In this document: one piece after another, positions 13,692-62,137 of the stretch | How positions within the stretch are numbered: position 1 is the stretch's first letter | How the letters are laid out: each line of letters begins with the position of its first letter | Source: a virus | Lineage: Duplodnaviria; Caudoviricetes | Length of the DNA stretch: 64,000 nt | Direction: 5' to 3' (one strand) | Virus record (IMG/VR): IMGVR_UViG_3300014204_000122 | Span: 64,001-128,000 of that record | Translations under genes and position numbers: made by a program | The notes under the pieces: model-generated | Databases searched by the model: none | The model's input: only the letters and a program-made list of their open reading frames with translations | Told to the model about the DNA's origin: nothing

Positions 13692-13772
13692 TTCCCACGA
13701 CAGGATTCAAACCCGCATTTTCAACATTCAATTACGTATACTTGATCCGTATTCAAGCTCGGTTACGTAGGA
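13692..13772 (-). ncRNA. D-arm-less tRNA-like RNA, anticodon ACG (Arg)
   Basis: Acceptor TCCTACG/CGTGGGA; hairpin CTTGA-ATACGGA-TCAAG; T arm GCGGG-TTTGAAT-CCTGT; only 8 nt between acceptor and anticodon stems. Confidence 0.6.
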
Positions 13773-13786
13773 ATAAAAATAAAAAG

Positions 13787-13882
13787 TCTAGTGTGAGGGA
13801 TTCGAACCCTCGGATAATACTACCTGTGTACCACCGCACGCTTCCAAGACGTGCATCTTAAACCTAACTCGACCAACACTAG
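13787..13882 (-). tRNA. tRNA-Pro(UGG) with long variable arm
   Basis: CTAGTGT/ACACTAG-A; CACGT-CTTGGAA-GCGTG; about 25-nt V region; TTCGAAT T loop. Confidence 0.8.
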
Positions 13883-13892
13883 TTATAATTAG

Positions 13893-13964
13893 TAGCCCTA
13901 GATTGATTCGAACAATCATCAAGTCATTCGTAGTGACCCATTCTATCCGTTGAACTATAGAGCC
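13893..13964 (-). tRNA. tRNA-Arg(ACG)
   Basis: Cloverleaf with GGTCA-CTACGAA-TGACT. Confidence 0.92.
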
Positions 13965-13973
13965 TCAAATTTG

Positions 13974-14058
13974 CTGATTAGGTACGACTCGAACGTACAA
14001 GCTCTTTACGAGCACTTGCTTCAAAGACAAGTGTGTTTACCAATTCCACCACTAATCA
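13974..14058 (-). tRNA. tRNA-Gln(UUG) with long variable arm
   Basis: TGATTAG/CTAATCA-G; CTTGT-CTTTGAA-GCAAG; V arm GCTC-GTAAA-GAGC. Confidence 0.8.
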
Positions 14059-14064
14059 ATATTG

Positions 14065-14137
14065 TATCCATAGATGGGTTTGAACCACCGACCGCCAAGG
14101 TATAAGCTTGGAACTCTGACCACTGAGTTATATGGAT
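14065..14137 (-). tRNA. tRNA-Ile(UAU)
   Basis: CCAAG-CTTATAC-CTTGG; acceptor ATCCATA/TATGGAT. Confidence 0.88.
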
Positions 14138-14160
14138 ATATTTCAATTAACTTAATCTAG

Positions 14161-14235
14161 TCGAGGTGGTGAGATTTGAACTCACGAACCGACGTTTCCA
14201 GGACGCCGTTGTATAACCATCTGCATAACACCTCG
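14161..14235 (-). tRNA. divergent tRNA-Pro(UGG)
   Basis: CGAGGTG/CACCTCG-A; GGCGT-CCTGGAA-ACGTC (C33, A37); weak D stem. Confidence 0.7.
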
Positions 14236-14248
14236 TTATATTTTTTTG

Positions 14249-14319
14249 TTGTCTTACAAGGATTCGAACCTTGAATACCTGGATCAAAACCAGATGTGTT
14301 ACCATTACACTATAAGACA
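14249..14319 (-). tRNA. tRNA-Gln(UUG)
   Basis: TCTGG-TTTTGAT-CCAGG; U1:A72. Confidence 0.92.
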
Positions 14320-14391
14320 ATATATTTTAAAATCTAATTCTATGTTTCTCTGTCTATCGATCCTTTAAATTAGTAACGGTCTCCTGTATCG

Positions 14392-14467
14392 TCTAGGTAG
14401 TGAAATTTGAATTCACGTGCTCTGCATCCCAAATGCAGCGAGATAAACCTGACTCCTCTATACCTAG
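14392..14467 (-). tRNA. tRNA-Pro(UGG)
   Basis: CTGCA-TTTGGGA-TGCAG; C1:G72, A73. Confidence 0.92.
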
Positions 14468-14490
14468 TTATATATTTTTAAATTTTAAGC

Positions 14491-14527
14491 AAAAAAAAAT
14501 CTCAATCAAATTACTGATTGAGATTTT
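14491..14527 (-). terminator. attenuator terminator of tRNA array 1
   Basis: AAAATCTCAATCAG-TAAT-TTGATTGAGATTTTTTTTT on the minus strand. Confidence 0.85.
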
Positions 14528-14559
14528 CTATTAAAATATGAAATATTAACGTAAAACTT

Positions 14560-14649
14560 TTAAATTTTAATATTCAATTTTAAACATGACTCAATCAGGC
14601 TGCTTCTGCGCGGCTGTTGAGGTATTTGTATGTTTAAAATTGCGTTCAT
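14560..14649 (-). CDS. leader peptide 1 (MNAILNIQIPQQPRRSSLIESCLKLNIKI)
   Basis: 29-codon ORF between promoter repeat and terminator; codons 7-14 ATA CAA ATA CCT CAA CAG CCG CGC match array 1 tRNAs. Confidence 0.8.
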   Translation of the reverse strand: MNAILNIQIPQQPRRSSLIESCLKLNIKI

Positions 14650-14664
14650 TTTGTTTATTTTATT

Positions 14665-14767
14665 TTTAAATATTACTTTTTTATTTATTTATTATTAATA
14701 TAAGAAATTATTTTTGTTTTATTTCTATTTTGATACCCTAAAGATATATTTTTTTATAATACAAACC
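14665..14767 (-). promoter_or_regulatory. composite promoter block of tRNA array 1 (repeat copy A)
   Basis: About 100 bp nearly identical to 18125-18227; carries TTTG..TATCTTTAG, TTCTTATATT and ATATTTAAA elements. Confidence 0.7.
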
Positions 14768-15180
14768 TAATATTTTGAATTATTTTTTAACACTATACCA
14801 TTTTTATAAACTTCATACTCATAAAAACGAGGTAATCCATATTTTAGAGCTTCTGCTAAATCTGTCCATTCTTCTTCAGAAACCATATCATCTGGATAAG
14901 AAAAATTACCTTTTAAATGAGCAGGTATAGGTCTTAAATTAACTAAAACTAATTCACCTTCACCACCTTTAACATCTATTGCTAATTCTTCTGTGCTCCA
15001 ATCTGATTTAGTATCGATAATTTCTTCAACTCTATCACGAATTTCTTTTTGTGTATAAATTTTAGGTGTTGGAGGATCAGGAAACATATCTTCTTTCAAA
15101 ATTATTTTTTTTCCTGAAATTCTTTGTAATTTTTCAGTAAGCAATTGTATCTCTAATTGTTTTTCCTTTTCTGATTTCAT
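14767..15180 (-). CDS. tagged putative internal head protein
   Basis: MKSEKEKQLEIQLLTEKLQRISGKKIILKE tag. Confidence 0.75.
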   Translation of the reverse strand: MKSEKEKQLEIQLLTEKLQRISGKKIILKEDMFPDPPTPKIYTQKEIRDRVEEIIDTKSDWSTEELAIDVKGGEGELVLVNLRPIPAHLKGNFSYPDDMVSEEEWTDLAEALKYGLPRFYEYEVYKNGIVLKNNSKY

Positions 15181-15181
15181 T

Positions 15182-15568
15182 CTATTTTTCTTCTATATCT
15201 TCAATTTCTACATCACTATTTTCAAAATCTATAGGTTCTACACTTATTTGTGGTTGAGTTTCTTCTCCCTCTAATGCTTTATCAACACTGATAATTTCAC
15301 AAGAAACTATGTTAGTGAATACTTTTAATCTTTTATCAATTGCATTTTTAAGTTCTTCTTCTGAAGGTTCAAGATTATTTGTAATTATAATTTTACCTTC
15401 AATAAGAGTAGGTTCAAACCCTTCAAATAAAACAGATACTTTAAATAAATAAGTAATATTGTTCCAATAACTATTCATTTCTGTAAAAACTACTTTCTTG
15501 CCAGATATTCTTTGAATTTTTTCTGTAAGTAATTGTATCTCTAATTGTTTTTCTTTTTCTGTTTTCAT
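15182..15568 (-). CDS. tagged putative internal head protein
   Basis: N-terminal tag ending VVFTE. Confidence 0.75.
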   Translation of the reverse strand: MKTEKEKQLEIQLLTEKIQRISGKKVVFTEMNSYWNNITYLFKVSVLFEGFEPTLIEGKIIITNNLEPSEEELKNAIDKRLKVFTNIVSCEIISVDKALEGEETQPQISVEPIDFENSDVEIEDIEEK

Positions 15569-15580
15569 TATTGTTTATAG

Positions 15581-15838
15581 TTATACAGTTATTTTATTCC
15601 AAAAATCATTTAATTTTTTATCTGCACCCACTGCTAATTGAATTATGTCTTTAGATATAGGTCCTCCTATGATTTTAGCTGATTCTATAATGGCTTTTAA
15701 TTTTTCTGCTACTATTAAAATATCTTTTATATTATTAGTGGCTTCGTTTTCTTTTAAAACTACTTTCTTGCCAGATATTCTTTGGATCTTTTCAGTAAGT
15801 AATTGAATTTCTAATTGTTTTTCTTTTTCTGTTTTCAT
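15581..15838 (-). CDS. tagged putative internal head protein
   Basis: N-terminal tag ending VVLKE. Confidence 0.75.
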   Translation of the reverse strand: MKTEKEKQLEIQLLTEKIQRISGKKVVLKENEATNNIKDILIVAEKLKAIIESAKIIGGPISKDIIQLAVGADKKLNDFWNKITV

Positions 15839-15844
15839 TATTAA

Positions 15845-16261
15845 TTAAATACTGATTGTTTTTACTTCTTGAATATTTAGTTTTCCTGGAACTACTATAA
15901 AAGTAACATTTTCACAAGTCCATTTATCATAATCATCGAATGATTCATGTTTGCACTCTTCAATAAGCTCTAAAGCATCTTCTGATTCTTTTTTATCTAT
16001 AAGAGTTAAAAAATTAAGTAAGGCAATTTTTCTATTGATTCCTTTTACATAACTTATTTCTGAAACGTCTGCATTTCCTGAATTAGATTGTGAATAAACA
16101 GTAAATATTTTTTCTTCTTCTTGAGGTTCTCCTGGTTCCATAAGTTCTTCGATAATATCTTTGTCTTCACTTTCTGTAAAAACCACTTTCTTGCCAGATA
16201 TTCTTTGAATTTTTTCTGTAAGTAATTGTATCTCTAATTGTTTTTCTTTTTCTGATTTCAT
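15845..16261 (-). CDS. tagged putative internal head protein
   Basis: N-terminal tag ending VVFTE. Confidence 0.75.
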   Translation of the reverse strand: MKSEKEKQLEIQLLTEKIQRISGKKVVFTESEDKDIIEELMEPGEPQEEEKIFTVYSQSNSGNADVSEISYVKGINRKIALLNFLTLIDKKESEDALELIEECKHESFDDYDKWTCENVTFIVVPGKLNIQEVKTISI

Positions 16262-16296
16262 TTTATTTATATTTTAATTATTTACTTTAAATATAA

Positions 16297-16920
16297 TTAA
16301 TTTGGTTTTCCTACTAAAATTTTATAATGTTTTTCACCTGCAATGTCTCTTAAATACCAGCCTTCTTTTATATTAGATCCTTTAGGATTCTCTCCAACCC
16401 ATGTTACTTTCTTTCCTAATACTTGTTCTACTTCTTGTTGATTGTTTATAATAGGTACATTATATCTTTCTAGAACTTTCATTATTCTATTATCAACTTC
16501 ACAATAAAAACCTTGATTCTTTACTTTATTTGCAGCTCTTTCAAAATAAGATATAATAGAAGCTCTTGCTCCATCGTGTCCTACTCCTACTAATTTAATA
16601 CCGTGTTTAGTATTTTTTCCAAAATATAATACATCTATATCAGGATCTTGATCTATATCTACTACTTCTACATAAGAAAAATCATCATTTGATAAAATAT
16701 CATTTGTTGACTTTATATTACTATGACCTCCAATTTGAGAATATGCTATATTAATAAGTTCAAGAAATTCATCTACTAGTTCTGGGTGAGATTTTATATT
16801 GATTTTCTCCCACTCATGTTTTTTTAATCCTAATTTTGATGATTCTTTTTCTATAAGAATGACTTTGCTTTTAGAAATTTTTTCTAATTTTTCAATTAAT
16901 AATTGTAAAATAGGTTTCAT
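16297..16920 (-). CDS. protein with divergent N-terminal tag
   Basis: MKPILQLLIEKLEKISKSKVILIE. Confidence 0.7.
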   Translation of the reverse strand: MKPILQLLIEKLEKISKSKVILIEKESSKLGLKKHEWEKINIKSHPELVDEFLELINIAYSQIGGHSNIKSTNDILSNDDFSYVEVVDIDQDPDIDVLYFGKNTKHGIKLVGVGHDGARASIISYFERAANKVKNQGFYCEVDNRIMKVLERYNVPIINNQQEVEQVLGKKVTWVGENPKGSNIKEGWYLRDIAGEKHYKILVGKPN

Positions 16921-16985
16921 TTATAGCATTTTATTATAAATATAGGAAAGTAAAATATAAAAATTAAATTTTATAATATTTTTTG

Positions 16986-17068
16986 TACTCTAGGTCAGAC
17001 TCGAACTGACACGCTTGAGGGCGACGACGCTTAAAATCGTTGTGTACTACCAATTTCACCACTAGAGC
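16986..17068 (-). tRNA. tRNA-Leu(UAA)
   Basis: ACGAT-TTTAAGC-GTCGT; long V arm. Confidence 0.9.
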
Positions 17069-17073
17069 ATTTG

Positions 17074-17155
17074 TGATCTAAGAGAGATTTGAACTCTCAC
17101 TATTTACATAATTAGCTTCTTAAACTAACGTGTCTACCAATTCCACCATTAGACC
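17074..17155 (-). tRNA. tRNA-Leu(AAG)
   Basis: TTAGT-TTAAGAA-GCTAA; Leu-type D arm. Confidence 0.88.
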
Positions 17156-17163
17156 ATATTTTG

Positions 17164-17253
17164 CGGAAGATGAGGGGGTCGAACCCTCGTAACGGTTTTT
17201 AAGCGTCCTAATTGTTTAGCAAACAATCCTCTTTACCATTTGAGTAACCTTCC
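17164..17253 (-). tRNA. tRNA-Ser(GCU)
   Basis: ATTGT-TTGCTAA-ACAAT; long V arm; G73. Confidence 0.92.
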
Positions 17254-17265
17254 ATTTTATTTTTG

Positions 17266-17340
17266 TAGATTAGAAGGGAGTCGAACCCTCACTGAATAGT
17301 TTCTAAAACTATTGCCTCTTAACCATTGGGCTACTAATCC
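17266..17340 (-). tRNA. tRNA-Leu(UAG) with short variable loop
   Basis: ATAGT-TTTAGAA-ACTAT followed by a 5-nt V loop. Confidence 0.82.
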
Positions 17341-17354
17341 ATTTATATTTTTTG

Positions 17355-17445
17355 TACTCCAGGTCGGACTCGAACCGACAGTGTTTTCTCAATGAGTGTC
17401 ACCGTTTAAAAGTGATGCGTTTCAACCAAGTTTCGCCACTGGAGC
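17355..17445 (-). tRNA. tRNA-Leu(UAA)
   Basis: TCACT-TTTAAAC-GGTGA; long V arm. Confidence 0.9.
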
Positions 17446-17464
17446 ATATTTATTTTTTTATTTG

Positions 17465-17537
17465 GGTGAAAACGGGGCTCGAACCCTGTCCTAGATATTC
17501 ACAGTATCTCATGCTAACCAATAACACTATTTTCACC
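17465..17537 (-). tRNA. tRNA-His(GUG)
   Basis: G-1:C73; AGATA-CTGTGAA-TATCT. Confidence 0.9.
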
Positions 17538-17546
17538 ATATATTTG

Positions 17547-17639
17547 CGGAAGAAGTAGGATTCGAACCCACACACCCCTAAAGGCCCTCGGTTTTCAAGA
17601 CCGCCGCCGCTACCCTGCAAGCTTTCGGCTTATTCTTCC
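17547..17639 (-). tRNA. tRNA-Ser(UGA) with expanded D arm
   Basis: GCGGT-CTTGAAA-ACCGA; D arm GCCG-16nt-CGGC; G73. Confidence 0.82.
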
Positions 17640-17653
17640 ATTTTTTTATTTAG

Positions 17654-17743
17654 GGTGAAAGACGAGTCACGATCTCGCATTAAGTTGTTACACTATTCCA
17701 GAACCACAATCTGGTCGGCATCCAATTACCGGCTACTAACACC
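17654..17743 (-). tRNA. divergent tRNA-His(GUG) with long variable region
   Basis: G-1:C73; CCAGA-TTGTGGT-TCTGG; 19-nt V region; atypical D and T loops; two U.U acceptor mismatches. Confidence 0.65.
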
Positions 17744-17831
17744 ATATATTTTTAAAATAATATTATAAGCCGTACACTTTTCACAGTCGCTATGGGTTTC
17801 AACCATTTAGTACTTATAATATTATTTAAAG

Positions 17832-17915
17832 CGGAAGAAGAGAGATTCGAACTCTCGAAGCTTTTACACCCAGTTGTTTTCAAAACAATGTCCTCATGCC
17901 TACCGGATTTCTTCC
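17832..17915 (-). tRNA. tRNA-Ser(UGA), atypical D arm
   Basis: GGAAGAA/TTCTTCC-G; TTGT-TTTGAAA-ACAA; long V arm. Confidence 0.8.
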
Positions 17916-17936
17916 AAATTTATTTTTTTTACAATT

Positions 17937-17948
17937 ATTTCAATGAAC
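17937..17948 (-). promoter_or_regulatory. boxA-like antitermination element
   Basis: GTTCATTGAAAT between the terminator and the first tRNA. Confidence 0.55.
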
Positions 17949-17959
17949 TATATACAAAC

Positions 17960-18000
17960 AAAAAAAACCCTTGATCAATTTATTTAGATCAAGGGTTTTT
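17960..18000 (-). terminator. attenuator terminator of tRNA array 2
   Basis: AAAAACCCTTGATC-10nt-GATCAAGGGTTTTTTTT. Confidence 0.88.
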
Positions 18001-18026
18001 AATATTAACTTTTAAAATTATAGAAA

Positions 18027-18119
18027 TTATCTTTTCGTTAAATCATACCTTGATCCACATCTGCTACTTGATAACAGGTGTAAATGCGATAACAACGATA
18101 TGATAACTATTTTTTTCAT
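18027..18119 (-). CDS. leader peptide 2 (MKKIVIISLLSHLHLLSSSRCGSRYDLTKR)
   Basis: 30-codon ORF; codons 8-19 are exclusively Ser/Leu/His, matching array 2. Confidence 0.82.
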   Translation of the reverse strand: MKKIVIISLLSHLHLLSSSRCGSRYDLTKR

Positions 18120-18124
18120 TTTCT

Positions 18125-18227
18125 TTTAAATATTACTTTTTTATTTATTTATTATTAATATAAGAAATTATTTTTGTTTTATTTCTATTTTAATGCTCTA
18201 AAGATATATTTTTTTATAATACTAACC
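18125..18227 (-). promoter_or_regulatory. composite promoter block of tRNA array 2 (repeat copy B)
   Basis: Near-identical to 14665-14767. Confidence 0.7.
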
Positions 18228-18247
18228 AAATTATTTTAAATTATTTT

Positions 18248-18892
18248 TTATTTCATTACATATAGTTGGTATTTTCCTTTAGGAAATTCTTTAATTTCTT
18301 CAGGTGTATTAGCTGTTGCTAAAACCTTAGTTAATGTTCCAACATAGTAAGGATTATAAATTTTTGCTTTTCTATTATAAAGAGATGGAAGTTTAGTTGT
18401 ACCATTTCCATCATCAAATAAATATAAATCTCTATTATCTTTTAAATATTCTTCTGTTTTTCCTGAACCTGATAAAATAATTGTTTTATCATTTCCCACA
18501 AGTTTAAGTAAAAAATATGCTGTCTTATTTTGCACAAACTCATTATTTAATGGATTTTGCGTATCAATTTTACTATCTGAATTTAAACAAGCTATTTTTA
18601 TTCCTTTCTTTTCTTCTTCTAATATAATACTTTTATTAGATAATGTTGAAAATGCACTTTCATTTAGCACTTCAAAAACCAATATACCGTTACCACCAAA
18701 TTTTGAATTATTTCCTACTAATTGTCCCTCTTCATCAAATCCTAAATGAGACCAACCATCTTCTTCTAATTCTTTTTTAAATTCAGGATCTAATTCAACC
18801 TCTTCTTTTAAAACTACCTTCTTACCAGATATTCTTTGAATTTTTTCAGTAAGCAATTGTATTTCTAGTTGTTTTTCTTTTTCTGATTTCAT
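18248..18892 (-). CDS. tagged putative internal head protein
   Basis: N-terminal tag ending VVLKE. Confidence 0.75.
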   Translation of the reverse strand: MKSEKEKQLEIQLLTEKIQRISGKKVVLKEEVELDPEFKKELEEDGWSHLGFDEEGQLVGNNSKFGGNGILVFEVLNESAFSTLSNKSIILEEEKKGIKIACLNSDSKIDTQNPLNNEFVQNKTAYFLLKLVGNDKTIILSGSGKTEEYLKDNRDLYLFDDGNGTTKLPSLYNRKAKIYNPYYVGTLTKVLATANTPEEIKEFPKGKYQLYVMK

Positions 18893-18896
18893 TATT

Positions 18897-19466
18897 TTAT
18901 ATTTTATTTATTATTAAGTTTTCAGGAATATCAACTATATATTCTCCTGATGTTAAAGGGTCCAAAAATAAAAGTCCTCTTGGAGTACTTAAAACTAATT
19001 CTTTTCTTTTAGTTTGCGATGGATTTGAAATAAACCCTAAAACTTTTCCTACTTCAAAACTATTATAACCATTATATCCTATATATTGGTTTTGTTTAAG
19101 TAACCACAAACCTCCTGTTTTATCTAAATTTTTAATATGATCTTTAATACTATTATTAGATGTAAATTCTTCCTCAAAACTATCACCCATATCAGGATGT
19201 ACAATTAAAGGATTTTTAACTAAAGGTAATTTAACTTTATAATCAGGATATATTTTTTTAAAATATTCTAATACTTCAATTTTAATAGGAGTATTTTTTA
19301 AATTAATTATTTTATTTTCTTCATTAATATTATCAATAAAATTTTTTATTCGTTCTTCTATTTTAACAGGTTTGGCATGTTTAGAGTAGTAAACATAATC
19401 ATCTTCCAAAATAACCTTTTTATTAACAAGGTTTTCTAATTTTTCTATTAATATATTTATGTTCAT
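18897..19466 (-). CDS. protein with divergent tag
   Basis: MNINILIEKLENLVNKKVILED. Confidence 0.7.
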   Translation of the reverse strand: MNINILIEKLENLVNKKVILEDDYVYYSKHAKPVKIEERIKNFIDNINEENKIINLKNTPIKIEVLEYFKKIYPDYKVKLPLVKNPLIVHPDMGDSFEEEFTSNNSIKDHIKNLDKTGGLWLLKQNQYIGYNGYNSFEVGKVLGFISNPSQTKRKELVLSTPRGLLFLDPLTSGEYIVDIPENLIINKI

Positions 19467-19468
19467 TA

Positions 19469-22387: not shown

Positions 22388-22389
22388 TT

Positions 22390-23082: not shown

Positions 23083-23135
23083 TATTAATTAATTTATTTT
23101 AAATATTAAATTTTACTTTAAATTATTAAAATAAA

Positions 23136-23456
23136 TTAATTTTCATCCTGATTATCTTCTATTTCATCAAAAACTTCTTCTTCCACTTCATCATAATCAA
23201 AATATTCTTCTTCCTCATCACCATCAACTTCTTCAATTTTTTTTACAACTCTATTTTTAGCAATATCGTCGCATTTTTTACCATTTTTTTTACACTCAAA
23301 TTTTAAAACATCTAAATTATCTTTTATATATTCCAATAAATCTTTATCAGAAATTTTATTATTATATATTCCTAATAAATATTCAGCAGGAATATTAATT
23401 AATTTTCGTCCCTTATAAGGTCCAAAATTAATTATTGAATCATCATCTAGTATCAT
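23136..23456 (-). CDS. DUF3820-like small protein with acidic tail
   Basis: FGPYKGRKLINIPAEYLL motif. Confidence 0.65.
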   Translation of the reverse strand: MILDDDSIINFGPYKGRKLINIPAEYLLGIYNNKISDKDLLEYIKDNLDVLKFECKKNGKKCDDIAKNRVVKKIEEVDGDEEEEYFDYDEVEEEVFDEIEDNQDEN

Positions 23457-52259: not shown

Positions 52260-52284
52260 TTTTAATAAAATAAGAAAATAAATA

Positions 52285-52315: not shown

Positions 52316-52374
52316 ATTTCTGTAATATTTAAAATAAAATACATTAATTTAAAAACAATTTAAAAATTGATAAA

Positions 52375-54051: not shown

Positions 54052-54073
54052 TAATCAAATAATTATATAAAAT

Positions 54074-54100
54074 AAAAGCCTTGTTTTTTACAAGGCTTTT
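54074..54100 (+). terminator. intrinsic terminator after MCP
   Basis: AAAAGCCTTG..CAAGGCTTTT. Confidence 0.8.
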
Positions 54101-54169
54101 ATTTTGTTTTAAAAATAATATCGAAGAATAAAGTATATTAAAAAATAATTCTTATTTTAAAAAATAAAA

Positions 54170-55513: not shown

Positions 55514-55517
55514 TAAA

Positions 55518-55946
55518 ATGAAAGAAGAAATAAAAGAAATTATAGATACATATAGTATTTTTAAATTAATTAAGCCACAATTTTTAGAGAAAGAATATAA
55601 TAGTATTTTCTTAAAAATAAGCGTATTTAAAGAAAGATATTATAAAAATGATATATTACCATATTCTCAGATAGTTTATTTGTATAATCACAATATAATA
55701 AGTATACCGAAGTGTTATTGTGGTAATCAATGTACTTTTAAATCTTTTTCAGAGGGATATAGAGGCTATTGTTCTAATAAATGCTCAGCCAATTCAAAAA
55801 ATAAACAAGAAAAAATAGAAAAAACTTGCACAGAGAGGTATGGTGTAAAAAATGTAGCACAAAAACAAGAAGTAAAAGATAAAAAAAGAGAAACTTTTTT
55901 AGCAAATGAAAAAAATATGATAAAAAATAAAAAAACTTTTATATAG
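55518..55946 (+). CDS. truncated paralog of the KYGV-repeat protein
   Basis: Same N-terminal region, Zn motif and one repeat; no nuclease domain. Confidence 0.65.
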   Translation: MKEEIKEIIDTYSIFKLIKPQFLEKEYNSIFLKISVFKERYYKNDILPYSQIVYLYNHNIISIPKCYCGNQCTFKSFSEGYRGYCSNKCSANSKNKQEKIEKTCTERYGVKNVAQKQEVKDKKRETFLANEKNMIKNKKTFI

Positions 55947-56042
55947 AAGTGTAGCAAATATGTTTTAAAGTGTTTTTAATCTTTAAAAAATAAAATATTT
56001 AGTAAAAAATTAATATTTATATAAAATGTTAATATAGACTAA

Positions 56043-56804
56043 ATGGAAAAAAATAAAACAGAACAATATAGACAATTATATCCCAAAGGAACACAAATAG
56101 AATTAATTTCTATGGATGATGATTTTACCAATTTAAAACAAGGAGATAAGGGGATAATTCAATTGGTGGATGATATAGGTAATGTTCACGTAAATTGGGA
56201 AAATGGTTCAAAATTAGCTTTAGTTCCAGAAGTGGATTCGTTTAAAATAATATCAAACAAATCAGAGATTGAAACAGTTAAGTTTAATGAATTAAAAGAT
56301 AAATTTAAAGAAGAGTATTCATATCTTGATATTCCAGAAGATAATATAATTCAAAAATTTGCAAATAAAGCTTTAAATATAGATGTTAAAGTTGATTTAC
56401 TTGCAGGATATGTATTGTCAGGGAAAGAAAATTCAGCTGAAATTGAAGAAAGTTATACTAAAGAAAAAGATGATAAACCTGGCTACCCAAGAGGAGATGA
56501 GCCTACCAAAATTATTGAAGAGGATGAAAATATTGAAGAAAAAGAAGAAAATCTTAATATTATCTCTTTAGGAGAAATAACTTCTGAAATTTTTGAAAAC
56601 AACAAAGAATATATAAAAGAACAAATTATTGATAATTTTATTACCCAGTTTAAAGCATCTGGTGTATCTCCAGGATTAGCAGAAGATCAAGCAAAAGATC
56701 TTTGGAGAGAAAATTATGGTGAATTTACATATGAAGGTTTAAAAGAAGCTATAGATGATGCTTTTTTAATAGATAGTAGTTTTACAGTTGAGATTATTAA
56801 ATAA
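56043..56804 (+). CDS. DUF4314-like domain protein
   Basis: YPKGTQIELISMDD..G.I..VDDIG..HVNWENGS.LAL.P..D.F. Confidence 0.7.
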   Translation: MEKNKTEQYRQLYPKGTQIELISMDDDFTNLKQGDKGIIQLVDDIGNVHVNWENGSKLALVPEVDSFKIISNKSEIETVKFNELKDKFKEEYSYLDIPEDNIIQKFANKALNIDVKVDLLAGYVLSGKENSAEIEESYTKEKDDKPGYPRGDEPTKIIEEDENIEEKEENLNIISLGEITSEIFENNKEYIKEQIIDNFITQFKASGVSPGLAEDQAKDLWRENYGEFTYEGLKEAIDDAFLIDSSFTVEIIK

Positions 56805-56814
56805 TAATTAAAAA

Positions 56815-57084
56815 ATGGCAAGTAGATATACAAGAAGAACATTTATACAACCTACAAGAAAGATATCAATAGCTAATACAGATGTTTATCATACTTTTAA
56901 TCAGTTTGATAATGTTGATGCTTTAGCTGATAAATGGTATCACGATGTAACATTAGGTTGGGTTATTATGTGCGCCAATCCACAATATAAATTTGAGTTT
57001 CAAATAAACCCAGGTGATAAAATTAGAATAGCTTTTCCTATTAATAGAATATGGAATGAATGGGGTTATAATAATGAAGTTTAA
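56815..57084 (+). CDS. LysM/tail-X-like baseplate protein
   Basis: D.LA.KWY.D..LGWVI..AN..I.PG..IRI. Confidence 0.75.
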   Translation: MASRYTRRTFIQPTRKISIANTDVYHTFNQFDNVDALADKWYHDVTLGWVIMCANPQYKFEFQINPGDKIRIAFPINRIWNEWGYNNEV

Positions 57085-57096
57085 CAAATATAAAAA

Positions 57097-58563
57097 ATGA
57101 AATCAGAAAAAGAAAAACAATTGGAAATACAACTACTTACTGAAAAAATTCAAAATATATCTGGAAAAAAGGTTATTTTCAAAGAAGAGTTTAATATAGA
57201 AGAGGAAGACGATTATTATTTAATAACCTCTTTAGAAGATGAAATAGAAACTGAAGCTTTTATAGATAATTCAAAATATATTCAAAATAAATTTCCAAAT
57301 GAAAAAGTTTTAAAAATTGATTGTGTTTATAATAATGATTTTTTTAAAAAATTTATAGGGTTTTTAAAAAAGAATAATATTAAATATAATATTAGAAAGG
57401 CAAGATTAGATAATTTTTGTAGAATCAATATAAATGTAAAAGATTTAAAATCAACAAACATTTTAAAAGAAAACGAAGAGAAAACATATAAAATATCAAA
57501 AACATATAACGATAAAACTAAAGTTATTGAAGATACTTTAGAAGGATTAATCAAATATTTTAGTTATACTTTAGAATCAGGAAAAAGTCATAATAGTTCA
57601 ATAGATAAAAGACCTAAAACAATTAATAGTCTTATAAGTAATTTAAGAAAAGCTTTTGATGAATTAGAAGGAGGTTTTTCTAGAACAAGTATTAGGTTAA
57701 TTAAAGAAAATGTTGAAGTATTAAAAGAAACTATGTCTGCTATCCCTCCTGTTAAAAGTAAAACATCTGATTTAGAGAATTTAAGAGCTGCAATTATAGC
57801 AGAATATGATGCTATTAATTTATATGATCAAATGGCTAATAATACAAAAAATAGTAAAATTAAAGAAGTTTTGTTAGATATAGCTAAAGAAGAAAAAACT
57901 CATGTAGGTGAATTAGAAGCACTTTTAAAAGACTTTGACAAACAACATGCAGAAGAAGTCGTTTCAGGAGAAAAAGAGGTTAAAAAAGCTTTAAAAGAAG
58001 AAAAAACAACAGTTTTAAAAGAAGCTATTAATCCTAGCAGTTGGAATATGACTAATGTGGCAAATAAAGTAGAAAGTTATGCAAATGAAAAAAATATACC
58101 TTTTGCTAAATTTAAAATTGAAAGAAAACCTTATGGGTATGGAGCTACTAGAACTACAGCTAAATTAAAAATAGGTTCAAATATAATTCTTATGAAAGTA
58201 GATAAAGTACCTGGAATGGGCAATAACGCAAATGACCTTGAGGTATATATGATAGATCCACAAGATGAATCTAAAGGTATAAAAATCAGCAACTGGTGTT
58301 ATTTATCAGATATTCCAAAATTTTTAGATAAATGGTTTGAATCATCTCAAGTTAGTTCTGATATTAAAACAATGTCTAAAGAAGAGGTTGAAAAATTAAA
58401 ATCAGATTTAAAAAAGGCAAGAATTGAAAATAATGAAGAAATAAGTGATGATCAAGCTTTTGATATAGCAGAAAATATTATAAATGAAAATCCGGGTTTA
58501 AAGGAATATTTAACTAGTATAGGAATTAAAGATATACAAGGCTATATAGCTAATTGGATATAA
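57097..58563 (+). CDS. tagged multi-module protein with a ferritin-like domain
   Basis: N-terminal tag; LRAAIIAEYDAINLYDQMA..DIAKEEKTHVGEL; modules separated by LKE/IKE. Confidence 0.75.
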   Translation: MKSEKEKQLEIQLLTEKIQNISGKKVIFKEEFNIEEEDDYYLITSLEDEIETEAFIDNSKYIQNKFPNEKVLKIDCVYNNDFFKKFIGFLKKNNIKYNIRKARLDNFCRININVKDLKSTNILKENEEKTYKISKTYNDKTKVIEDTLEGLIKYFSYTLESGKSHNSSIDKRPKTINSLISNLRKAFDELEGGFSRTSIRLIKENVEVLKETMSAIPPVKSKTSDLENLRAAIIAEYDAINLYDQMANNTKNSKIKEVLLDIAKEEKTHVGELEALLKDFDKQHAEEVVSGEKEVKKALKEEKTTVLKEAINPSSWNMTNVANKVESYANEKNIPFAKFKIERKPYGYGATRTTAKLKIGSNIILMKVDKVPGMGNNANDLEVYMIDPQDESKGIKISNWCYLSDIPKFLDKWFESSQVSSDIKTMSKEEVEKLKSDLKKARIENNEEISDDQAFDIAENIINENPGLKEYLTSIGIKDIQGYIANWI

Positions 58564-58627
58564 AAAAATAAACATTGATAATCAATGAATTATAAATTAT
58601 TTTAAATTATTTTAAGAAAAAGGTTGT

Positions 58628-58741
58628 TTTGTATTAGAAAAAACCATTATCTTTAGCATAACAAATTAAGAGAAATAATACACTTTTGTAAAAATTTTTC
58701 TTATATTAATAATGAAAAATAAAAAATAGTTATATTTAAAA
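58628..58741 (+). promoter_or_regulatory. composite promoter block of tRNA array 3
   Basis: TTTGTATTA..TATCTTTAG, TTCTTATATTAATAAT and TATATTTAAA in the same order as for arrays 1 and 2. Confidence 0.65.
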
Positions 58742-58760
58742 GAAACAATAAATAAAAAAA

Positions 58761-58847
58761 ATGAAAAAGTGGTATACATATAGAACAATTATGACAGCCT
58801 TTAATAAAGGGGTAGAGGATTGTGGTGTACTCGATATTCGGATTTAA
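58761..58847 (+). CDS. leader peptide 3 (MKKWYTYRTIMTAFNKGVEDCGVLDIRI)
   Basis: 28-codon ORF; the first 21 codons contain exactly the 15 amino acids served by array 3. Confidence 0.85.
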   Translation: MKKWYTYRTIMTAFNKGVEDCGVLDIRI

Positions 58848-58872
58848 ACATTAATAAAGTAATTAAATATTT

Positions 58873-58906
58873 AAACCCGAATCAGTAAAAAGTTTCGGGT
58901 TTTTTT
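58873..58906 (+). terminator. attenuator terminator of tRNA array 3
   Basis: AAACCCGAA-12nt-TTCGGGTTTTTTT. Confidence 0.85.
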
Positions 58907-58929
58907 ATCCGGAAAAAAAAATAAAAAAA

Positions 58930-58941
58930 GTTCTTTGACAT
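58930..58941 (+). promoter_or_regulatory. boxA-like antitermination element
   Basis: GTTCTTTGACAT between the terminator and the first tRNA-like RNA. Confidence 0.6.
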
Positions 58942-58957
58942 ATTGGTATAAAAAAAT

Positions 58958-59046
58958 GGTTCTGTGGTGAAAGTATCACAAGGCAGTCGATTCACAACAG
59001 TGAGGTATCTTCAGTCGTGTTACAGGTTCATATCCTGTCAGAACCA
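58958..59046 (+). ncRNA. tRNA-like RNA without a canonical anticodon arm
   Basis: Acceptor GGTTCTG/CAGAACC-A, D arm GTGA-AAGTA-TCAC, T arm ACAGG-TTCATAT-CCTGT; about 40-nt irregular middle. Confidence 0.6.
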
Positions 59047-59055
59047 CATAATATT

Positions 59056-59136
59056 GGATCAGTTGAGCAATTGGTTGGCTCGCCTGACTGTAGATCAGGT
59101 CTGAAAGGCGTGGGGGTTCGAATCCCTCCTGATCCA
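59056..59136 (+). tRNA. tRNA-Tyr(GUA)
   Basis: CCTGA-CTGTAGA-TCAGG. Confidence 0.92.
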
Positions 59137-59152
59137 CATGATATTTTTCACT

Positions 59153-59390
59153 AGGTTTTGTTAATCTGACAAAATAATAAACCTTTAAACATATTAAATA
59201 AAAAGTCAGAATAGTTTAATATGGGTTTTAAGACGGTTTAAGCGCCGATAAATTATTCATTCAGTGGAAAGTAAAGTTTAGTTGTGTAGCATTGTAATTA
59301 TTTATAATGAATTAAATTTTATGGACTCCGAGATGATCATATATATAGAAAGGTATATAATTTTACAAGTAGAAGGCTTGTTATTAAAAC
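59153..59390 (+). ncRNA. candidate structured RNA within the tRNA array
   Basis: Several hairpins; complementary loops TCTGAC/GTCAGA. Confidence 0.4.
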
Positions 59391-59410
59391 TTATTTTTTT
59401 TAAGAAATAT

Positions 59411-59486
59411 TCCTCTGTAGCTATTAATTGGTTAGAGCGATAAATTGTTAATTTGGGGGTTGTTGGTTCGAGTCCAACTGGAGGAG
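59411..59486 (+). tRNA. tRNA-Asn(GUU)
   Basis: TCCTCTG/TGGAGGA-G; loop TTGTTAA; weak anticodon stem. Confidence 0.85.
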
Positions 59487-59497
59487 CAAAATAAAAT

Positions 59498-59570
59498 GGA
59501 TGAGTGGCGTAATTGGTAGCGCAATTGACTGTTAATCAATAGGTTATGGGATCGTACCCCATCTCATCCG
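59498..59570 (+). tRNA. tRNA-Asn(GUU)
   Basis: ATTGA-CTGTTAA-TCAAT; T loop ATCGTAC. Confidence 0.88.
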
Positions 59571-59582
59571 CAAACAAAAAAT

Positions 59583-59657
59583 GCCTTGATAGCGCAGGTG
59601 GTCAGTTCGCGCTGGACTGAAAATCCAGAGATAGTGGTTCAACTCCACTTCAGGGCA
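59583..59657 (+). tRNA. tRNA-Phe(GAA)
   Basis: CTGGA-CTGAAAA-TCCAG. Confidence 0.92.
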
Positions 59658-59670
59658 CATAAAATAAAAC

Positions 59671-59755
59671 GCACGAATAGCACGTAACTGGAAGCGTCCT
59701 TCTCTTCTAAAGAAGTGACTTTATGTTCTTGAAGGTTCGAATCCTTCTTCGTGTA
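59671..59755 (+). tRNA. tRNA-Arg(UCU) with long variable region
   Basis: CTTCT-CTTCTAA-AGAAG; 15-nt V region. Confidence 0.85.
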
Positions 59756-59782
59756 CAATTAAAATAATAGTTATTATAAAAT

Positions 59783-59853
59783 AGATCTATGGTGTAGTGG
59801 TAACATTTTGAGCTCCAACCTCAACGTCCTGCGTTCGAATCGTAGTGGGTCTG
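59783..59853 (+). tRNA. tRNA-Trp(CCA)
   Basis: TTGAG-CTCCAAC-CTCAA; G73. Confidence 0.9.
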
Positions 59854-59871
59854 CAAAAAAATAAAACATAT

Positions 59872-59956
59872 GTCACGTTCGACTAGCGGTCCAGGTCGCC
59901 AGGTTTTCATCCTGGTTAGAGAAATCTTAACATCGGTTCAAATCCGATACGTGATA
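59872..59956 (+). tRNA. tRNA-Glu(UUC) with long variable arm
   Basis: CCAGG-TTTTCAT-CCTGG; V arm containing AGA-GAAA-TCT. Confidence 0.85.
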
Positions 59957-59980
59957 CTGTAGATAAAATAAATAAAATAA

Positions 59981-60052
59981 CACCCGTTCGACAAGTGGTT
60001 AAGTCGTCAGGTTTTCAACCTGGAGTCACGAGTTCAAATCTCGTACGGGTGA
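59981..60052 (+). tRNA. tRNA-Glu(UUC)
   Basis: TCAGG-TTTTCAA-CCTGG. Confidence 0.9.
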
Positions 60053-60058
60053 CTAAAT

Positions 60059-60130
60059 AGTTCGGTGGTACAATGGTGGTATAACTCGTTGTCTGCGAGA
60101 TGGTTAGGGGTTCAAGTCCCCTCCGAACTG
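60059..60130 (+). tRNA. tRNA-Asp(GUC)
   Basis: CTCG-TTGTCTG-CGAG; G73. Confidence 0.85.
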
Positions 60131-60255
60131 CAATAAATTAAATAAATAAATAAAAATTAAATTATAAGTAAAATGAAAAAACAAATTAAGCAAGTCAAAC
60201 TTTAGAACAACACCTCTATCAAGGATACGTGTTGTAAAAATTAAAAAATTACAAT

Positions 60256-60328
60256 GCGTTCGTAGCTCAATTGGTGGAGCACTCGACTTTTGATCGAGGG
60301 GCTGTGAGTTCAATTCTCACCGGACGTA
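60256..60328 (+). tRNA. tRNA-Lys(UUU), G37
   Basis: CTCGA-CTTTTGA-TCGAG. Confidence 0.88.
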
Positions 60329-60335
60329 CAAGTAT

Positions 60336-60427
60336 GCGTTTGTTCGCTTAGCCCGGTCGAAAGCACCACTCTTTTAAAGTGGATAGTTATTATAACTACA
60401 TCGTAGGTTCAAATCCTACCAGACGTA
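60336..60427 (+). tRNA. tRNA-Lys(UUU) with long variable arm
   Basis: CCACT-CTTTTAA-AGTGG; V arm TAGTTA-TTA-TAACTA. Confidence 0.85.
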
Positions 60428-60438
60428 CTTAATTATAT

Positions 60439-60514
60439 AGAGGTATAGCTCAGCCCGGTTTAGAGCAACTCTTTTACACAGAGAAGGTCGTTGGTTCGAA
60501 TCCAGCTATCTCTA
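60439..60514 (+). tRNA. tRNA-Val(UAC)
   Basis: CTCT-TTTACAC-AGAG. Confidence 0.9.
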
Positions 60515-60527
60515 CAAAAAAATAAAT

Positions 60528-60599
60528 GGTCTATTGGTGTTAATGGTAACATGCTACACTGTCTATGTAGTGCTTTCGGTTCGAATCCGTGATAGACCG
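60528..60599 (+). tRNA. tRNA-Asp(GUC)
   Basis: CTACA-CTGTCTA-TGTAG; G73. Confidence 0.88.
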
Positions 60600-60609
60600 C
60601 ACAATATAT

Positions 60610-60684
60610 TGGAATATAGCTCAGCCCGGTCAGAGCGCGAAACTGATACTTTCGATGTCGGGGGTTCAAATCCCTCTATTCCAA
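60610..60684 (+). tRNA. tRNA-Ile(GAU)
   Basis: CGAAA-CTGATAC-TTTCG. Confidence 0.9.
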
Positions 60685-60762
60685 CATTTTAAAGTAATAA
60701 TTAATTAAAAAAAATAAAAAAATGAAAACAATAATTGGAGGTGACAGCTTGGTCGCGATTTA

Positions 60763-61239
60763 ATGAAAGAACAAAGAATTCAACTTAAAAAGAAACAAAT
60801 TGATAGTAAAAATCATAGAAAGTTACAAAAATATTCTACTAATTTTAATGAAATATTTTCTTTTTTTTTAAAAAGCTATAGAAAAGGAATTTTAACCTTT
60901 TGTGGATCAAACGTTGAAGTAGATTTTGATTATAATGAAGGAAACAGTAAGTTTTGTTTTAGAAAGTATGATAATGGTGAATATAAGTTCCAATCTATTA
61001 AATCTAAACATCCAAATATTTTAAAATCAGTAATTATAGGAAAGAAAAGTTGGGGATTATTTTTACAACAATGGTCAGATGGTATAGTTGATTGGAGTTT
61101 TACAGAAGAAGAAATTTTACAAGAGTTTAAAGATAATAATATAACAATTCCTGAACCTTTGTTAAAAGATTTTCGTAATGTTATTTTAAAAAAGAAAATT
61201 AAAAGAAATGATGAATATTTAAAAAACTGGAGGTTATAA
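60763..61239 (+). CDS. hypothetical protein inside tRNA array 3
   Basis: 158-aa ORF co-oriented with the tRNAs. Confidence 0.65.
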   Translation: MKEQRIQLKKKQIDSKNHRKLQKYSTNFNEIFSFFLKSYRKGILTFCGSNVEVDFDYNEGNSKFCFRKYDNGEYKFQSIKSKHPNILKSVIIGKKSWGLFLQQWSDGIVDWSFTEEEILQEFKDNNITIPEPLLKDFRNVILKKKIKRNDEYLKNWRL

Positions 61240-61437
61240 ATGAAATTAAAAACATTAGAAGAAAAGGAAGATTATTTAAAACAATTAGCAAAAGAAAGAA
61301 ATTATAAAAATCTTAATTTAACATTAAATCCAAATAAAAATATTACAAAAGAAATGATCATAGATGATTTAATATTTTTATTTGAATTAAAAAGAGATAA
61401 GAAAATGAAATTAATTTTTACAACTAAAGGTAAATAA
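61240..61437 (+). CDS. hypothetical protein inside tRNA array 3
   Basis: 65-aa ORF abutting the previous ORF. Confidence 0.55.
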   Translation: MKLKTLEEKEDYLKQLAKERNYKNLNLTLNPNKNITKEMIIDDLIFLFELKRDKKMKLIFTTKGK

Positions 61438-61514
61438 TTTTTAAAGAAGTATTTGTGAACATTAACACAATGGTAGTAAAAATGTTGATTTTCGGTAATA
61501 AGAACCGTTTTTTA

Positions 61515-61588
61515 GGAGAATTAACTCAGCTGACTAGAGTACCTACCTTGCACGTAGGAGGTCATCGGTTTGAATCCGATATTCTCCA
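61515..61588 (+). tRNA. tRNA-Ala(UGC), A3:U70
   Basis: CCTAC-CTTGCAC-GTAGG; acceptor GGAGAAT/ATTCTCC. Confidence 0.85.
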
Positions 61589-61596
61589 CAAATAAT

Positions 61597-61668
61597 GCAA
61601 GAGTAGCTCAGGGATAGAGCGATTGATTACCAATCAATAGGTCGGGATTTTGAAACTCCTCTCTTGCT
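61597..61668 (+). tRNA. tRNA-Gly(ACC)
   Basis: ATTGA-TTACCAA-TCAAT; G1:C72, C2:G71, U73. Confidence 0.82.
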
Positions 61669-61778
61669 CAAATTTTCTCTCCCAAAACAAGATAAATAGG
61701 TAGGAGGTAGGTGTGTTAAATCTTTTAACATAAATTTTAAAGTTTTTCTTTTAATTTATCTTGTTTTTTATTATTTTT

Positions 61779-61851
61779 GCAAAATGTAGCTTAATTGGCT
61801 AAAGCACTTGTCTTCCAAACAGGGGATGCGGATCGTACCCGACATTTTGCT
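61779..61851 (+). tRNA. tRNA-Gly(UCC)
   Basis: CTTGT-CTTCCAA-ACAGG; acceptor GCAAAATG/CATTTTGC; U73. Confidence 0.82.
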
Positions 61852-61886
61852 CATTTAGTTGTAGGATCTATAAAACCTTCATATTT

Positions 61887-61959
61887 GCCGAAATAACACA
61901 ATTGGTAGTGTAGTTGATTTGTAATCAACAGGTTAGGAGTTCAAATCTCCTTTTCGGCT
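61887..61959 (+). tRNA. tRNA-Thr(UGU)
   Basis: GTTGA-TTTGTAA-TCAAC. Confidence 0.92.
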
Positions 61960-61970
61960 CAAAATTATAT

Positions 61971-62053
61971 TGCGGTGTGCCTGAAGTTGGTATCAGTGAG
62001 GTCTCATAAACCTCTGTCGTTTGACCTCGCGGGTTCGAGTCCCGCTGCCGCAA
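61971..62053 (+). tRNA. tRNA-Met(CAU) with long variable arm
   Basis: GAGGT-CTCATAA-ACCTC; V arm GTC-GTTT-GAC; fMet-like acceptor and T arm. Confidence 0.82.
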
Positions 62054-62063
62054 CAAAAAATAT

Positions 62064-62137
62064 GCACATATGCTCGAGTGGTTTATGGGGCTGGTCTGCA
62101 AAACCAGTATTCGATGGTTCAAATCCATCTATGTGCT
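62064..62137 (+). tRNA. tRNA-Cys(GCA)
   Basis: CTGGT-CTGCAAA-ACCAG; U73. Confidence 0.92.

Follow-up and report, generated by a model that had tools for sequence, protein, structure and literature searches.

The reason for the presence of tRNA genes in phages has been under debate for fifty years, and the question of their control has hardly been raised. In this study, we addressed this question for a 64-kb window, bases 64001-128000 of the 136.6-kb virus record IMGVR_UViG_3300014204_000122 in IMG/VR. The record has a G+C content of about 25%, is about 63% complete according to CheckV and contains genes for a major head protein, portal and terminase; it belongs to a large uncultured phage with a Bacteroidota-type host. 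One DNA sequencing run listed for it, a landfill metagenome, is probably the source sample, and the listing has no RNA run. The 34-36 tRNA genes are all grouped in three arrays in the window, and no tRNA gene was found outside these arrays in the whole 136.6 kb. Each array is preceded by a short leader open reading frame (ORF) that is rich in the codons read by its own tRNAs, and by an intrinsic terminator. We therefore consider it likely that each array is transcribed as a unit under the control of a ribosome-mediated (leader-peptide) attenuator, which reports the supply of its own charged tRNAs. A block of tRNAs would then probably be made only when ribosomes read its codons slowly.

The tRNA genes are distributed as follows:

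13786..14467, minus strand: tRNA array 1, with three Pro-UGG, two Gln-UUG, Ile-UAU and Arg-ACG.
16985..17915, minus strand: tRNA array 2, with two Ser-UGA, Ser-GCU, two His-GUG, two Leu-UAA, Leu-UAG and Leu-AAG.
58958..62138, plus strand: tRNA array 3, with about 21 tRNAs for Tyr, Asn, Phe, Arg-UCU, Trp, Glu, Asp, Lys, Val, Ile-GAU, Ala, Gly, Thr, Met and Cys.

The 20 amino acids are split between Pro, Gln, Ile-UAU and Arg-ACG in the first array, Ser, Leu and His in the second and 15 others in the third; together the arrays cover all 20, as had been proposed for this locus. ARAGORN counted 30 tRNA genes. Rfam and relaxed ARAGORN searches added two Ser-UGA, a His, a Leu-UAA, an Asn, a Gly-ACC (assigned by eye) and one weak Glu-like gene, and every gene added in this way obeyed the partition. 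Within array 2, four of the nine tRNAs were detected only with the relaxed ARAGORN threshold or Rfam. If U34 superwobble is assumed, the three arrays can read all sense codons but CGG.

A common layout precedes the tRNAs. It consists of a shared block, a leader ORF of 28-30 codons, a terminator and, in arrays 2 and 3, a boxA element, which is treated further below. The first two parts are:

14664..14789, minus strand: putative promoter/5' untranslated region (5'UTR) block of array 1, with a Bacteroidota-type TTTG ... TAtcTTTA motif followed by an A-rich untranslated leader of about 95 nt.
18124..18250, minus strand: the same putative block of array 2, with identity to that of array 1.
58628..58756, plus strand: the same putative block of array 3, also kept in a related phage (G005).
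14560..14649, minus strand: leader ORF 1, MNAILNIQIPQQPRRSSLIESCLKLNIKI, 29 codons.
18027..18119, minus strand: leader ORF 2, MKKIVIISLLSHLHLLSSSRCGSRYDLTKR, 30 codons.
58761..58847, plus strand: leader ORF 3, MKKWYTYRTIMTAFNKGVEDCGVLDIRI, 28 codons, with an ortholog at 7489-7590 of the G005 locus L251.

Leaders 1 and 2 are preceded by about 127 nt with 120 identical positions, and leader 3 has about 100 in common with them. The 17-mer TTTCTTATATTAATAAT of this block occurs three times in 136.6 kb, each time preceding an array. Its motif suggests that the block acts as a promoter. A scan for sigma-70 promoters, which is ill-suited to Bacteroidota promoters, gave no excess over shuffled sequences. 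A 23-mer of the block matched only an unrelated AT-rich repeat without tRNAs in IMG/VR, and the region upstream of array 3 had no match among GenBank phages by blastn. All three leader ORFs start with ATG, have A-rich sequence upstream and are presumably translated. They were also recovered by a pipeline that is blind to codon content and takes the best terminator and then the longest ATG ORF ending no more than 90 nt upstream of it.

When the leader codons were marked by which array can read them, each leader was found to harbor an uninterrupted block of codons of its own array:

14608..14631, minus strand: sensor block 1, ATA CAA ATA CCT CAA CAG CCG CGC, eight consecutive array-1 codons, decoded by Ile-UAU, Gln-UUG, Pro-UGG and Arg-ACG; it holds region 1, CUCAACAG.
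18063..18098, minus strand: sensor block 2, TCG TTG TTA TCG CAT TTA CAC CTG TTA TCA AGT AGC, twelve consecutive Ser/Leu/His codons, which poll all tRNA species of array 2 but Leu-AAG.
58764..58829, plus strand: sensor block 3, 22 consecutive array-3 codons that include all 15 amino acids, with Arg as AGA and Ile as ATT.

Leader 1 opens with five foreign codons, continues with its own run of eight (codons 7-14) and is foreign again thereafter. Leader 2 has six foreign codons, a run of twelve (SLLSHLHLLSSS; codons 8-19) and then mostly foreign ones, and the run of 22 in leader 3 (codons 2-23) is followed by CTC. In the long ORFs of the phage, the background frequencies of the three codon sets are 0.113 (array 1), 0.164 (array 2) and 0.724 (array 3). 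The runs of eight and twelve are the longest for their codon sets across the six frames of the window, and each has a chance probability below 1e-6. For leader 3, the simulated probability of 22 in-set codons was 8e-4, and coverage of 15 amino acids occurred in 0 of 1,573 such draws, which gives a joint probability for run and coverage below about 5e-7. For those amino acids that are split between arrays, the synonymous codons also track the array: leader 1 contains two ATA codons and CGC, whereas leader 3 contains ATT and AGA (P=0.016 given the amino acids). We also considered whether the order of the leader codons mirrors the order of the tRNAs, which does not hold.

Of 26 non-redundant leaders of tRNA arrays, 21 have a short motif, ACATA, that starts 12-19 nt past the ATG (shuffle mean 1.6). 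At the same position, it is found in only 2 of 47 ordinary ORFs of the window. It is located in the window as follows:

14628-14633, minus strand: ACATA(T) motif of leader 1.
18098-18103, minus strand: ACATA(T) motif of leader 2.
58776-58781, plus strand: ACATA(T) motif of leader 3.

Leaders of loci L123-L129, L251 and many boxA-linked loci have the same motif. Since each of the three reading frames is represented, it is a nucleotide signal rather than a peptide motif. The hexamer ACATAT is also found inside the array-3 boxA. ACATA(T) could be a pause or ribosome-loading signal.

Leader and terminator are connected by sequence complementarity. The 3' part of each leader contains a copy of the 3' arm of the terminator, complementary to the 5' arm:

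14488..14529, minus strand: intrinsic terminator 1, stem of 14-16 bp, loop of 4 nt, U9, -14.8 kcal/mol.
17955..18000, minus strand: intrinsic terminator 2, stem of 14 bp, loop of 10 nt, U8, -18.5 kcal/mol.
58870..58908, plus strand: intrinsic terminator 3, AAACCCGAA / UUCGGGUUU followed by U7, -11.0 kcal/mol.
14590..14598, minus strand: region 2 (antiterminator strand) of leader 1, CTGATTGAG, 9 nt complementary to CTCAATCAG of the terminator 5' arm.
18048..18056, minus strand: region 2 of leader 2, GGATCAAGG, 8-9 nt complementary to CCTTGATC of the terminator 5' arm.
58836..58848, plus strand: region 2 of leader 3, ATTCGGATTTAAA, complementary to TTTAAACCCGAAT at 12 of 13 positions and containing the leader stop codon.

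A separate terminator rule with a loop of at most 8 nt, run alongside the sigma-70 scan, picks up only terminator 1. The nascent RNA, ending at the terminator loop, was folded with the footprint of the ribosome masked. With the A site within the sensor block, the antiterminator between region 2 and the terminator 5' arm (2:3) forms in these folds, and it is lost with the ribosome on region 2. The distance from the end of the sensor block to region 2 is always 5-19 nt, which is the geometry that a stalled ribosome needs. In the nascent RNA of leader 1, region 1 pairs with region 2 (p=0.84), and in that of leader 2, region 2 first pairs with nt 29-41 of the sensor block (p=0.67). Both are predicted 1:2 protector hairpins, with which these two leaders would possess all three hairpins of the trp type. 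In leader 3, the stop codon lies inside region 2, and a terminating ribosome would therefore cover it. Known leader families of Rfam matched below their gathering cut-offs, namely His_leader RF00514 (18.7 vs 49 bits), Trp_leader RF00513 (17.4 vs 41) and Thr_leader RF00506 (17.3 vs 55), with E values of 0.5-0.8; attenuator 1 had no Rfam match, and no T-box was matched in Rfam at the gathering threshold or at E<=1.

Much of this anatomy had been described in the original prediction. The layout of shared block, leader of 28-30 codons, terminator and tRNAs at all three arrays was borne out in every checkable detail. The leader segments that it had paired with the terminator 5' arms are complementary as described and agree with the ribosome-masked folds, and the match between leader codons and array that it had reported holds, down to synonymous choices. 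BoxA, which it had placed in arrays 2 and 3, is indeed found in these two, in a degenerate form behind terminator 2, and is missing behind terminator 1.

Does this correspondence extend to other phages? With the content-blind pipeline, 47 boxA-linked tRNA loci with enough upstream sequence yielded 23 distinct leaders, or 18 once similar ones were collapsed. In these 18, the amino acids of the array were present in its own leader at a fraction of 0.97 vs 0.88 in other leaders (P=1e-4), and 0.57 of the residues vs 0.49 belonged to the set of the own array (P=1e-5), many arrays being cut off by the ends of the loci. The longest complement between leader and terminator arm was 6.9 vs 5.0 nt in the same 18 (P<5e-6). 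The same kind of leader was recovered in 10 operons of four phages with differing tRNA splits. Within these four genomes, leaders and arrays can be paired in 144 ways, and the true pairing scores better than any other, in matched fraction as well as in run length. The complementarity between terminator and antiterminator is likewise locus-specific (7.4 nt for the own pair vs 5.1 nt, permutation P<1e-5). Leader peptide sequences are not conserved; it is their composition that tracks the arrays, as illustrated by three operons of phage G001:

Array {Gly, Pro, Ala, Gln, Thr}: leader ..TQTTVTATQQGAAGTG.PA.PQG..
Array {Leu, Met, Asn, Asp, Glu, Tyr}: leader EN.N.YNYLLNNLDEEM
Array {Trp, His, Phe, Ile, Lys, Arg, Ser, Val}: leader ISVISSIKRHWSFK

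Phage G003 has two arrays, each with a leader of 25 consecutive own codons. One leader uses ATA/TTA and the other ATY/CTC/TTG, matching Ile-UAU/Leu-UAA in the one array vs Ile-GAU/Leu-AAG, CAA, UAG in the other; when G003 is included in the test of synonymous codons, the combined probability is about 2e-5. The leaders of the two arrays of G002 follow the array content likewise.

The most direct comparison is provided by G005 (locus L251, IMGVR_UViG_3300031521_000075; identical in L250), the closest relative found, whose capsid protein is 83% identical. It keeps the promoter block and an ortholog of leader 3, MKNWYTYKTIKTFAISFAGNRVSNDCGM|LGIRI. Its array has Ser-GCU and no Glu tRNA; Ala-UGC and Gly-UCC were assigned by eye from two genes that ARAGORN missed. 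The sensor block of its leader covers exactly its own 15 amino acids, with AGC and AGT in and the Glu codon out. Leader 3 of the window shows the reverse, with GAG in and no Ser codon. In the stem of terminator 3, a compensatory change from C-G to U-A separates the window from G005, and as a consequence the antiterminator of G005 is a perfect match. Two complete leader-terminator units stand in tandem before boxA and the array in G005 (L251:7489-7950), and both leaders contain only amino acids of the array. The second one has 47 consecutive in-set codons, and all six Ser codons across the two leaders are AGY. For arrays 1 and 2, no relatives were found with the protein encoded between them as probe, so there are no close orthologs of these arrays to compare; their support comes from the within-window statistics and the analogous operons in other phages. 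A lost correspondence between leader and array in homologous loci had been named beforehand as an observation that would speak against attenuation. In homologous and analogous loci it is kept and changes in step with the array, including the Glu/Ser swap of G005, and terminator and antiterminator, for which compensatory changes had been named as a check, co-vary as well.

Beyond the terminator, two of the arrays carry a further signal:

17937..17948, minus strand: degenerate boxA-like element of array 2, GTTCATTGAAAT, a weaker match than the array-3 copy.
58930..58948, plus strand: boxA of array 3, GTTCTTTGACATATTGGTA, 9 nt before the first tRNA-like gene.

More than 110 IMG/VR contigs contain the boxA 19-mer GTTCTTTGACATAYTGGTA. 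In about 48 of these it precedes a tRNA array, typically at 24-31 nt from the first tRNA. An identical 19-mer was found in 119 bacterial genome contigs, nearly all from Bacteroidota, and where inspected it lies between tRNA-Ala and 23S rRNA. This position identifies it as the boxA of the rRNA operons of the host clade. No 16S rRNA start was found after boxA in the bacterial contigs, because the matched copies are the spacer boxA that precedes 23S rRNA. By analogy, boxA presumably carries the polymerase through the long untranslated arrays with the use of NusB/NusE. A reading of boxA as a sigma-70 -35 box (TTGACA) was ruled out, as only 9-25 nt remain to the first tRNA.

The same 19-mer also heads a recurrent element without tRNAs in more than 20 viral contigs of 37-39% G+C (L013, L017, L018, L029, L033, L039, L043, L048, L055, L056 and others). 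There, a conserved GC-rich stretch of about 110 nt that looks structured (..ccgccggttatccggtaccc..) precedes boxA, and aaatggtgttttggaagccgacac follows it.

Starting from this observed anatomy, its statistics and the covariation across phages, we infer stall kinetics, regulated read-through and the events behind a shortage as follows. A host-type promoter would start a transcript with an A-rich 5'UTR and a leader of 28-30 codons. When the leader is read fast, region 1 of arrays 1 and 2 would re-capture region 2 behind the ribosome, whereas in array 3 the terminating ribosome would cover region 2; in either case the terminator hairpin would form and the polymerase would stop before the tRNAs. 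When the ribosome stalls in the sensor block, region 2 would be free to pair with the emerging 5' arm of the terminator, and the polymerase would read on. Since the sensor block holds only own-array codons, a stall would report a shortage of exactly those charged tRNAs. Past the terminator, the polymerase of arrays 2 and 3 would pick up the rRNA-type boxA signal and be carried through the long untranslated array. Potentially, the phage would thus possess three independent supply-and-demand loops that jointly cover all 20 amino acids. Candidate triggers of a stall are the codon demand of a genome with 25% G+C, phage-induced decay of host tRNAs, amino-acid starvation and tRNA-cleaving defences.

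Several points weigh against this model. Array 1 has no boxA and the copy in array 2 is degenerate; the promoter was called from its motif alone, and the case for translation of the leaders consists of ORF integrity and A-rich start contexts only. Leader 3 has no clear 1:2 hairpin (pairing probability of region 2, 0.25), and its antiterminator carries one A x C mismatch. The stop codons of leaders 1 and 2 are located about 30 nt beyond region 2, so that termination behind an unstalled ribosome hinges on 1:2 refolding, which is a kinetic assumption. Moreover, amino-acid starvation would open the switch too, although extra tRNA is useless under this condition.

Other explanations differ in what they make of the leader. 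If the ORFs were chance ORFs or encoded trans-acting peptides, the hairpins ended an upstream transcript and the arrays were transcribed from elsewhere, there would be no regulation at all. AT-rich DNA does give many weak hairpins. However, the promoter block precedes the leader, and the stretch from terminator to first tRNA (9-25 nt after boxA) is too short for a promoter; leader peptides are unconserved while their composition matches the arrays, antiterminator and terminator change together, and the codon runs of leaders 1 and 2 are not expected by chance. We therefore regard this explanation as hardly credible, the least probable of those considered. Only slightly more credible, and still very improbable, is a general sensor of translation stress or coupling, in which the leader reports only ribosome movement and the codon content is incidental. 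Leader 3 and many leaders of other phages do sample most amino acids, and the upstream ORF (uORF) of mycobacterial whiB7 responds to many insults (PMC10274678). Against this, leaders 1 and 2 are narrow (four and three amino acids), the codon content of the three leaders is mutually exclusive, and leaders track their arrays across phages down to synonymous codons and the exchange of Glu for Ser.

A different question is what the attenuator was selected for. It is tempting to speculate that it serves to detect when anticodon nucleases or other kinds of tRNA-targeting immunity cause cleavage or loss of particular host tRNAs, and that only the module that replaces them is then switched on. Phage tRNAs are known to rescue infection from tRNA-targeting defences (PMC10264068, PMC11555353, PMC11464382). 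Separately gated modules would suit a targeted response, the long-arm tRNA variants of these arrays (see below) could be nuclease-resistant versions, and a protein with a weak 2H/RNA-ligase match is encoded 1.3 kb from array 1. However, we know of no nuclease whose target set corresponds to the Pro/Gln/Ile/Arg or Ser/Leu/His groupings, and the quite different amino-acid splits of the relatives argue against fixed, defence-specific modules. In addition, a phage with 25% GC in a Bacteroidota host has a plain codon-demand need for tRNA. The sequence is silent on what causes the shortage and hence the stall, and for this reason a counter-defence purpose appears possible but doubtful. Of the original interpretation, the structural reading as an attenuator is strongly supported, and the proposed trigger, tRNA cleavage, is one among several possible causes of a ribosome stall. 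The wider idea that large Bacteroidota phages run a modular surveillance of the tRNA pool, with modules that are switched on by slow decoding of their own codons and replace host tRNAs removed by defence nucleases or by the phage's own shut-off of the host, is likewise put forward tentatively, as one that may well prove wrong.

Leader-peptide attenuation itself is well known from the amino-acid operons of enterobacteria, where trpL, hisL, pheL, the multivalent thrL and ilvGMEDA are the classical cases. Like these, the phage arrays have a short leader with regulatory codons and a terminator with a mutually exclusive antiterminator, and the readout would be the speed of the ribosome on specific codons. 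Leaders 1 and 2 also have a predicted 1:2 protector hairpin, and the sensing of several amino acids by one leader has parallels in thr and ilv. In contrast to the classical attenuators, the regulated genes are tRNAs and not biosynthetic enzymes or synthetases, so the loop would close on tRNA supply itself. The phage leaders also poll up to 15 amino acids once each instead of using runs of one, and they are phage-owned, stand in a Shine-Dalgarno-poor Bacteroidota setting, are combined with boxA and lie outside the Rfam leader families. T-box riboswitches of Firmicutes likewise use transcription antitermination to report the state of a particular tRNA; however, they bind the uncharged tRNA directly via a specifier codon and need no translation, unlike the phage leaders. 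Antitermination by boxA and Nus factors is established for E. coli rrn and phage lambda nut. As in rRNA operons, the phage boxA (the same 19-mer as in Bacteroidota) stands ahead of long untranslated genes for structured RNA; unlike there, it lies downstream of a conditional terminator, and the binding of Nus factors is putative.

The nearest experimentally studied analogue of a codon-sensing uORF that responds to knock-down of tRNAs or synthetases is the mycobacterial whiB7 attenuator, which is opened by knock-down of tRNA or tRNA-synthetase genes and whose uORF codons set the shortage that is sensed (PMC10274678). As proposed here, stalling in the uORF prevents termination and the coding sequence determines what is sensed. 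In contrast to the phage arrays, whiB7 controls a transcription factor of the stress and antibiotic response, and its uORF is enriched in one amino acid (Ala), unpartitioned and unlinked to tRNA genes (PMC10274678). No account of leader-peptide or attenuator control of tRNA genes was found in the literature searched, in which subscription journals were thinly covered; the earlier statement that no description was known for phage tRNA arrays agrees with this search. If true, the idea of a modular tRNA surveillance would represent the first leader-peptide attenuation of tRNA genes and add a new layer to the conflict of phage and host over tRNA. If the switches work, they would extend trp-type attenuation to a new gene class, the phage would adjust its tRNA supply by measuring decoding speed directly and separately for each codon family, and a leader sequence would be a readable signature of the tRNAs that a phage considers limiting. 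Reporters could then be used to test demand against defence. Since the parts (promoter, leader of about 90 nt, terminator) are small and modular, they might be used in Bacteroidota to sense how available individual tRNAs are.

Several further observations concern the tRNA genes themselves. Many tRNAs are paired, a copy of normal length being accompanied by one of 84-97 nt whose variable arm is long and class II-like. Such long-arm copies exist for Pro, Gln, Arg, Glu, Lys and His, amino acids whose tRNAs are normally without such an arm. The long-arm copies and variants are:

13786-13882 and 13973-14058: long-arm copies within array 1 (minus strand).
17653-17742: long-arm copy within array 2 (minus strand).
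58958-59046: first gene of array 3 (plus strand), with an Rfam score of 34.6 bits, uncertain identity and no clear U33.
59671-59756, 59872-59957 and 60336-60428: long-arm copies within array 3 (plus strand).

Array 3 also contains small protein-coding ORFs on the plus strand:

60763-61239, plus strand: ORF of 158 aa, without a Pfam match.
61240-61450, plus strand: ORF of about 70 aa, identified by eye.

ORFs of about 1 kb are likewise found between tRNAs in the relative G001 (L010:1823-2676, 2947-3297, 3431-4440). Near array 1, at a distance of 1.3 kb, a protein of 653 aa is encoded (10496-12457, minus strand) that has a weak match to the 2'-5' RNA ligase/2H superfamily (Pfam 24 bits, cut-off 27) and another weak match to a PHROG RNA ligase; judged from these matches, it may be an RNA repair enzyme. 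Finally, a long inverted repeat lies inside array 3 (61669-61779, plus strand), with the arms AAAACAAGATAAAT .. ATTTATCTTGTTTTTT about 65 nt apart and followed by a T-run. It is flanked by the tRNA at 61597-61668 (Gly-ACC by eye) and tRNA-Gly(UCC) at 61779-61852, and could be an internal stop or processing site.

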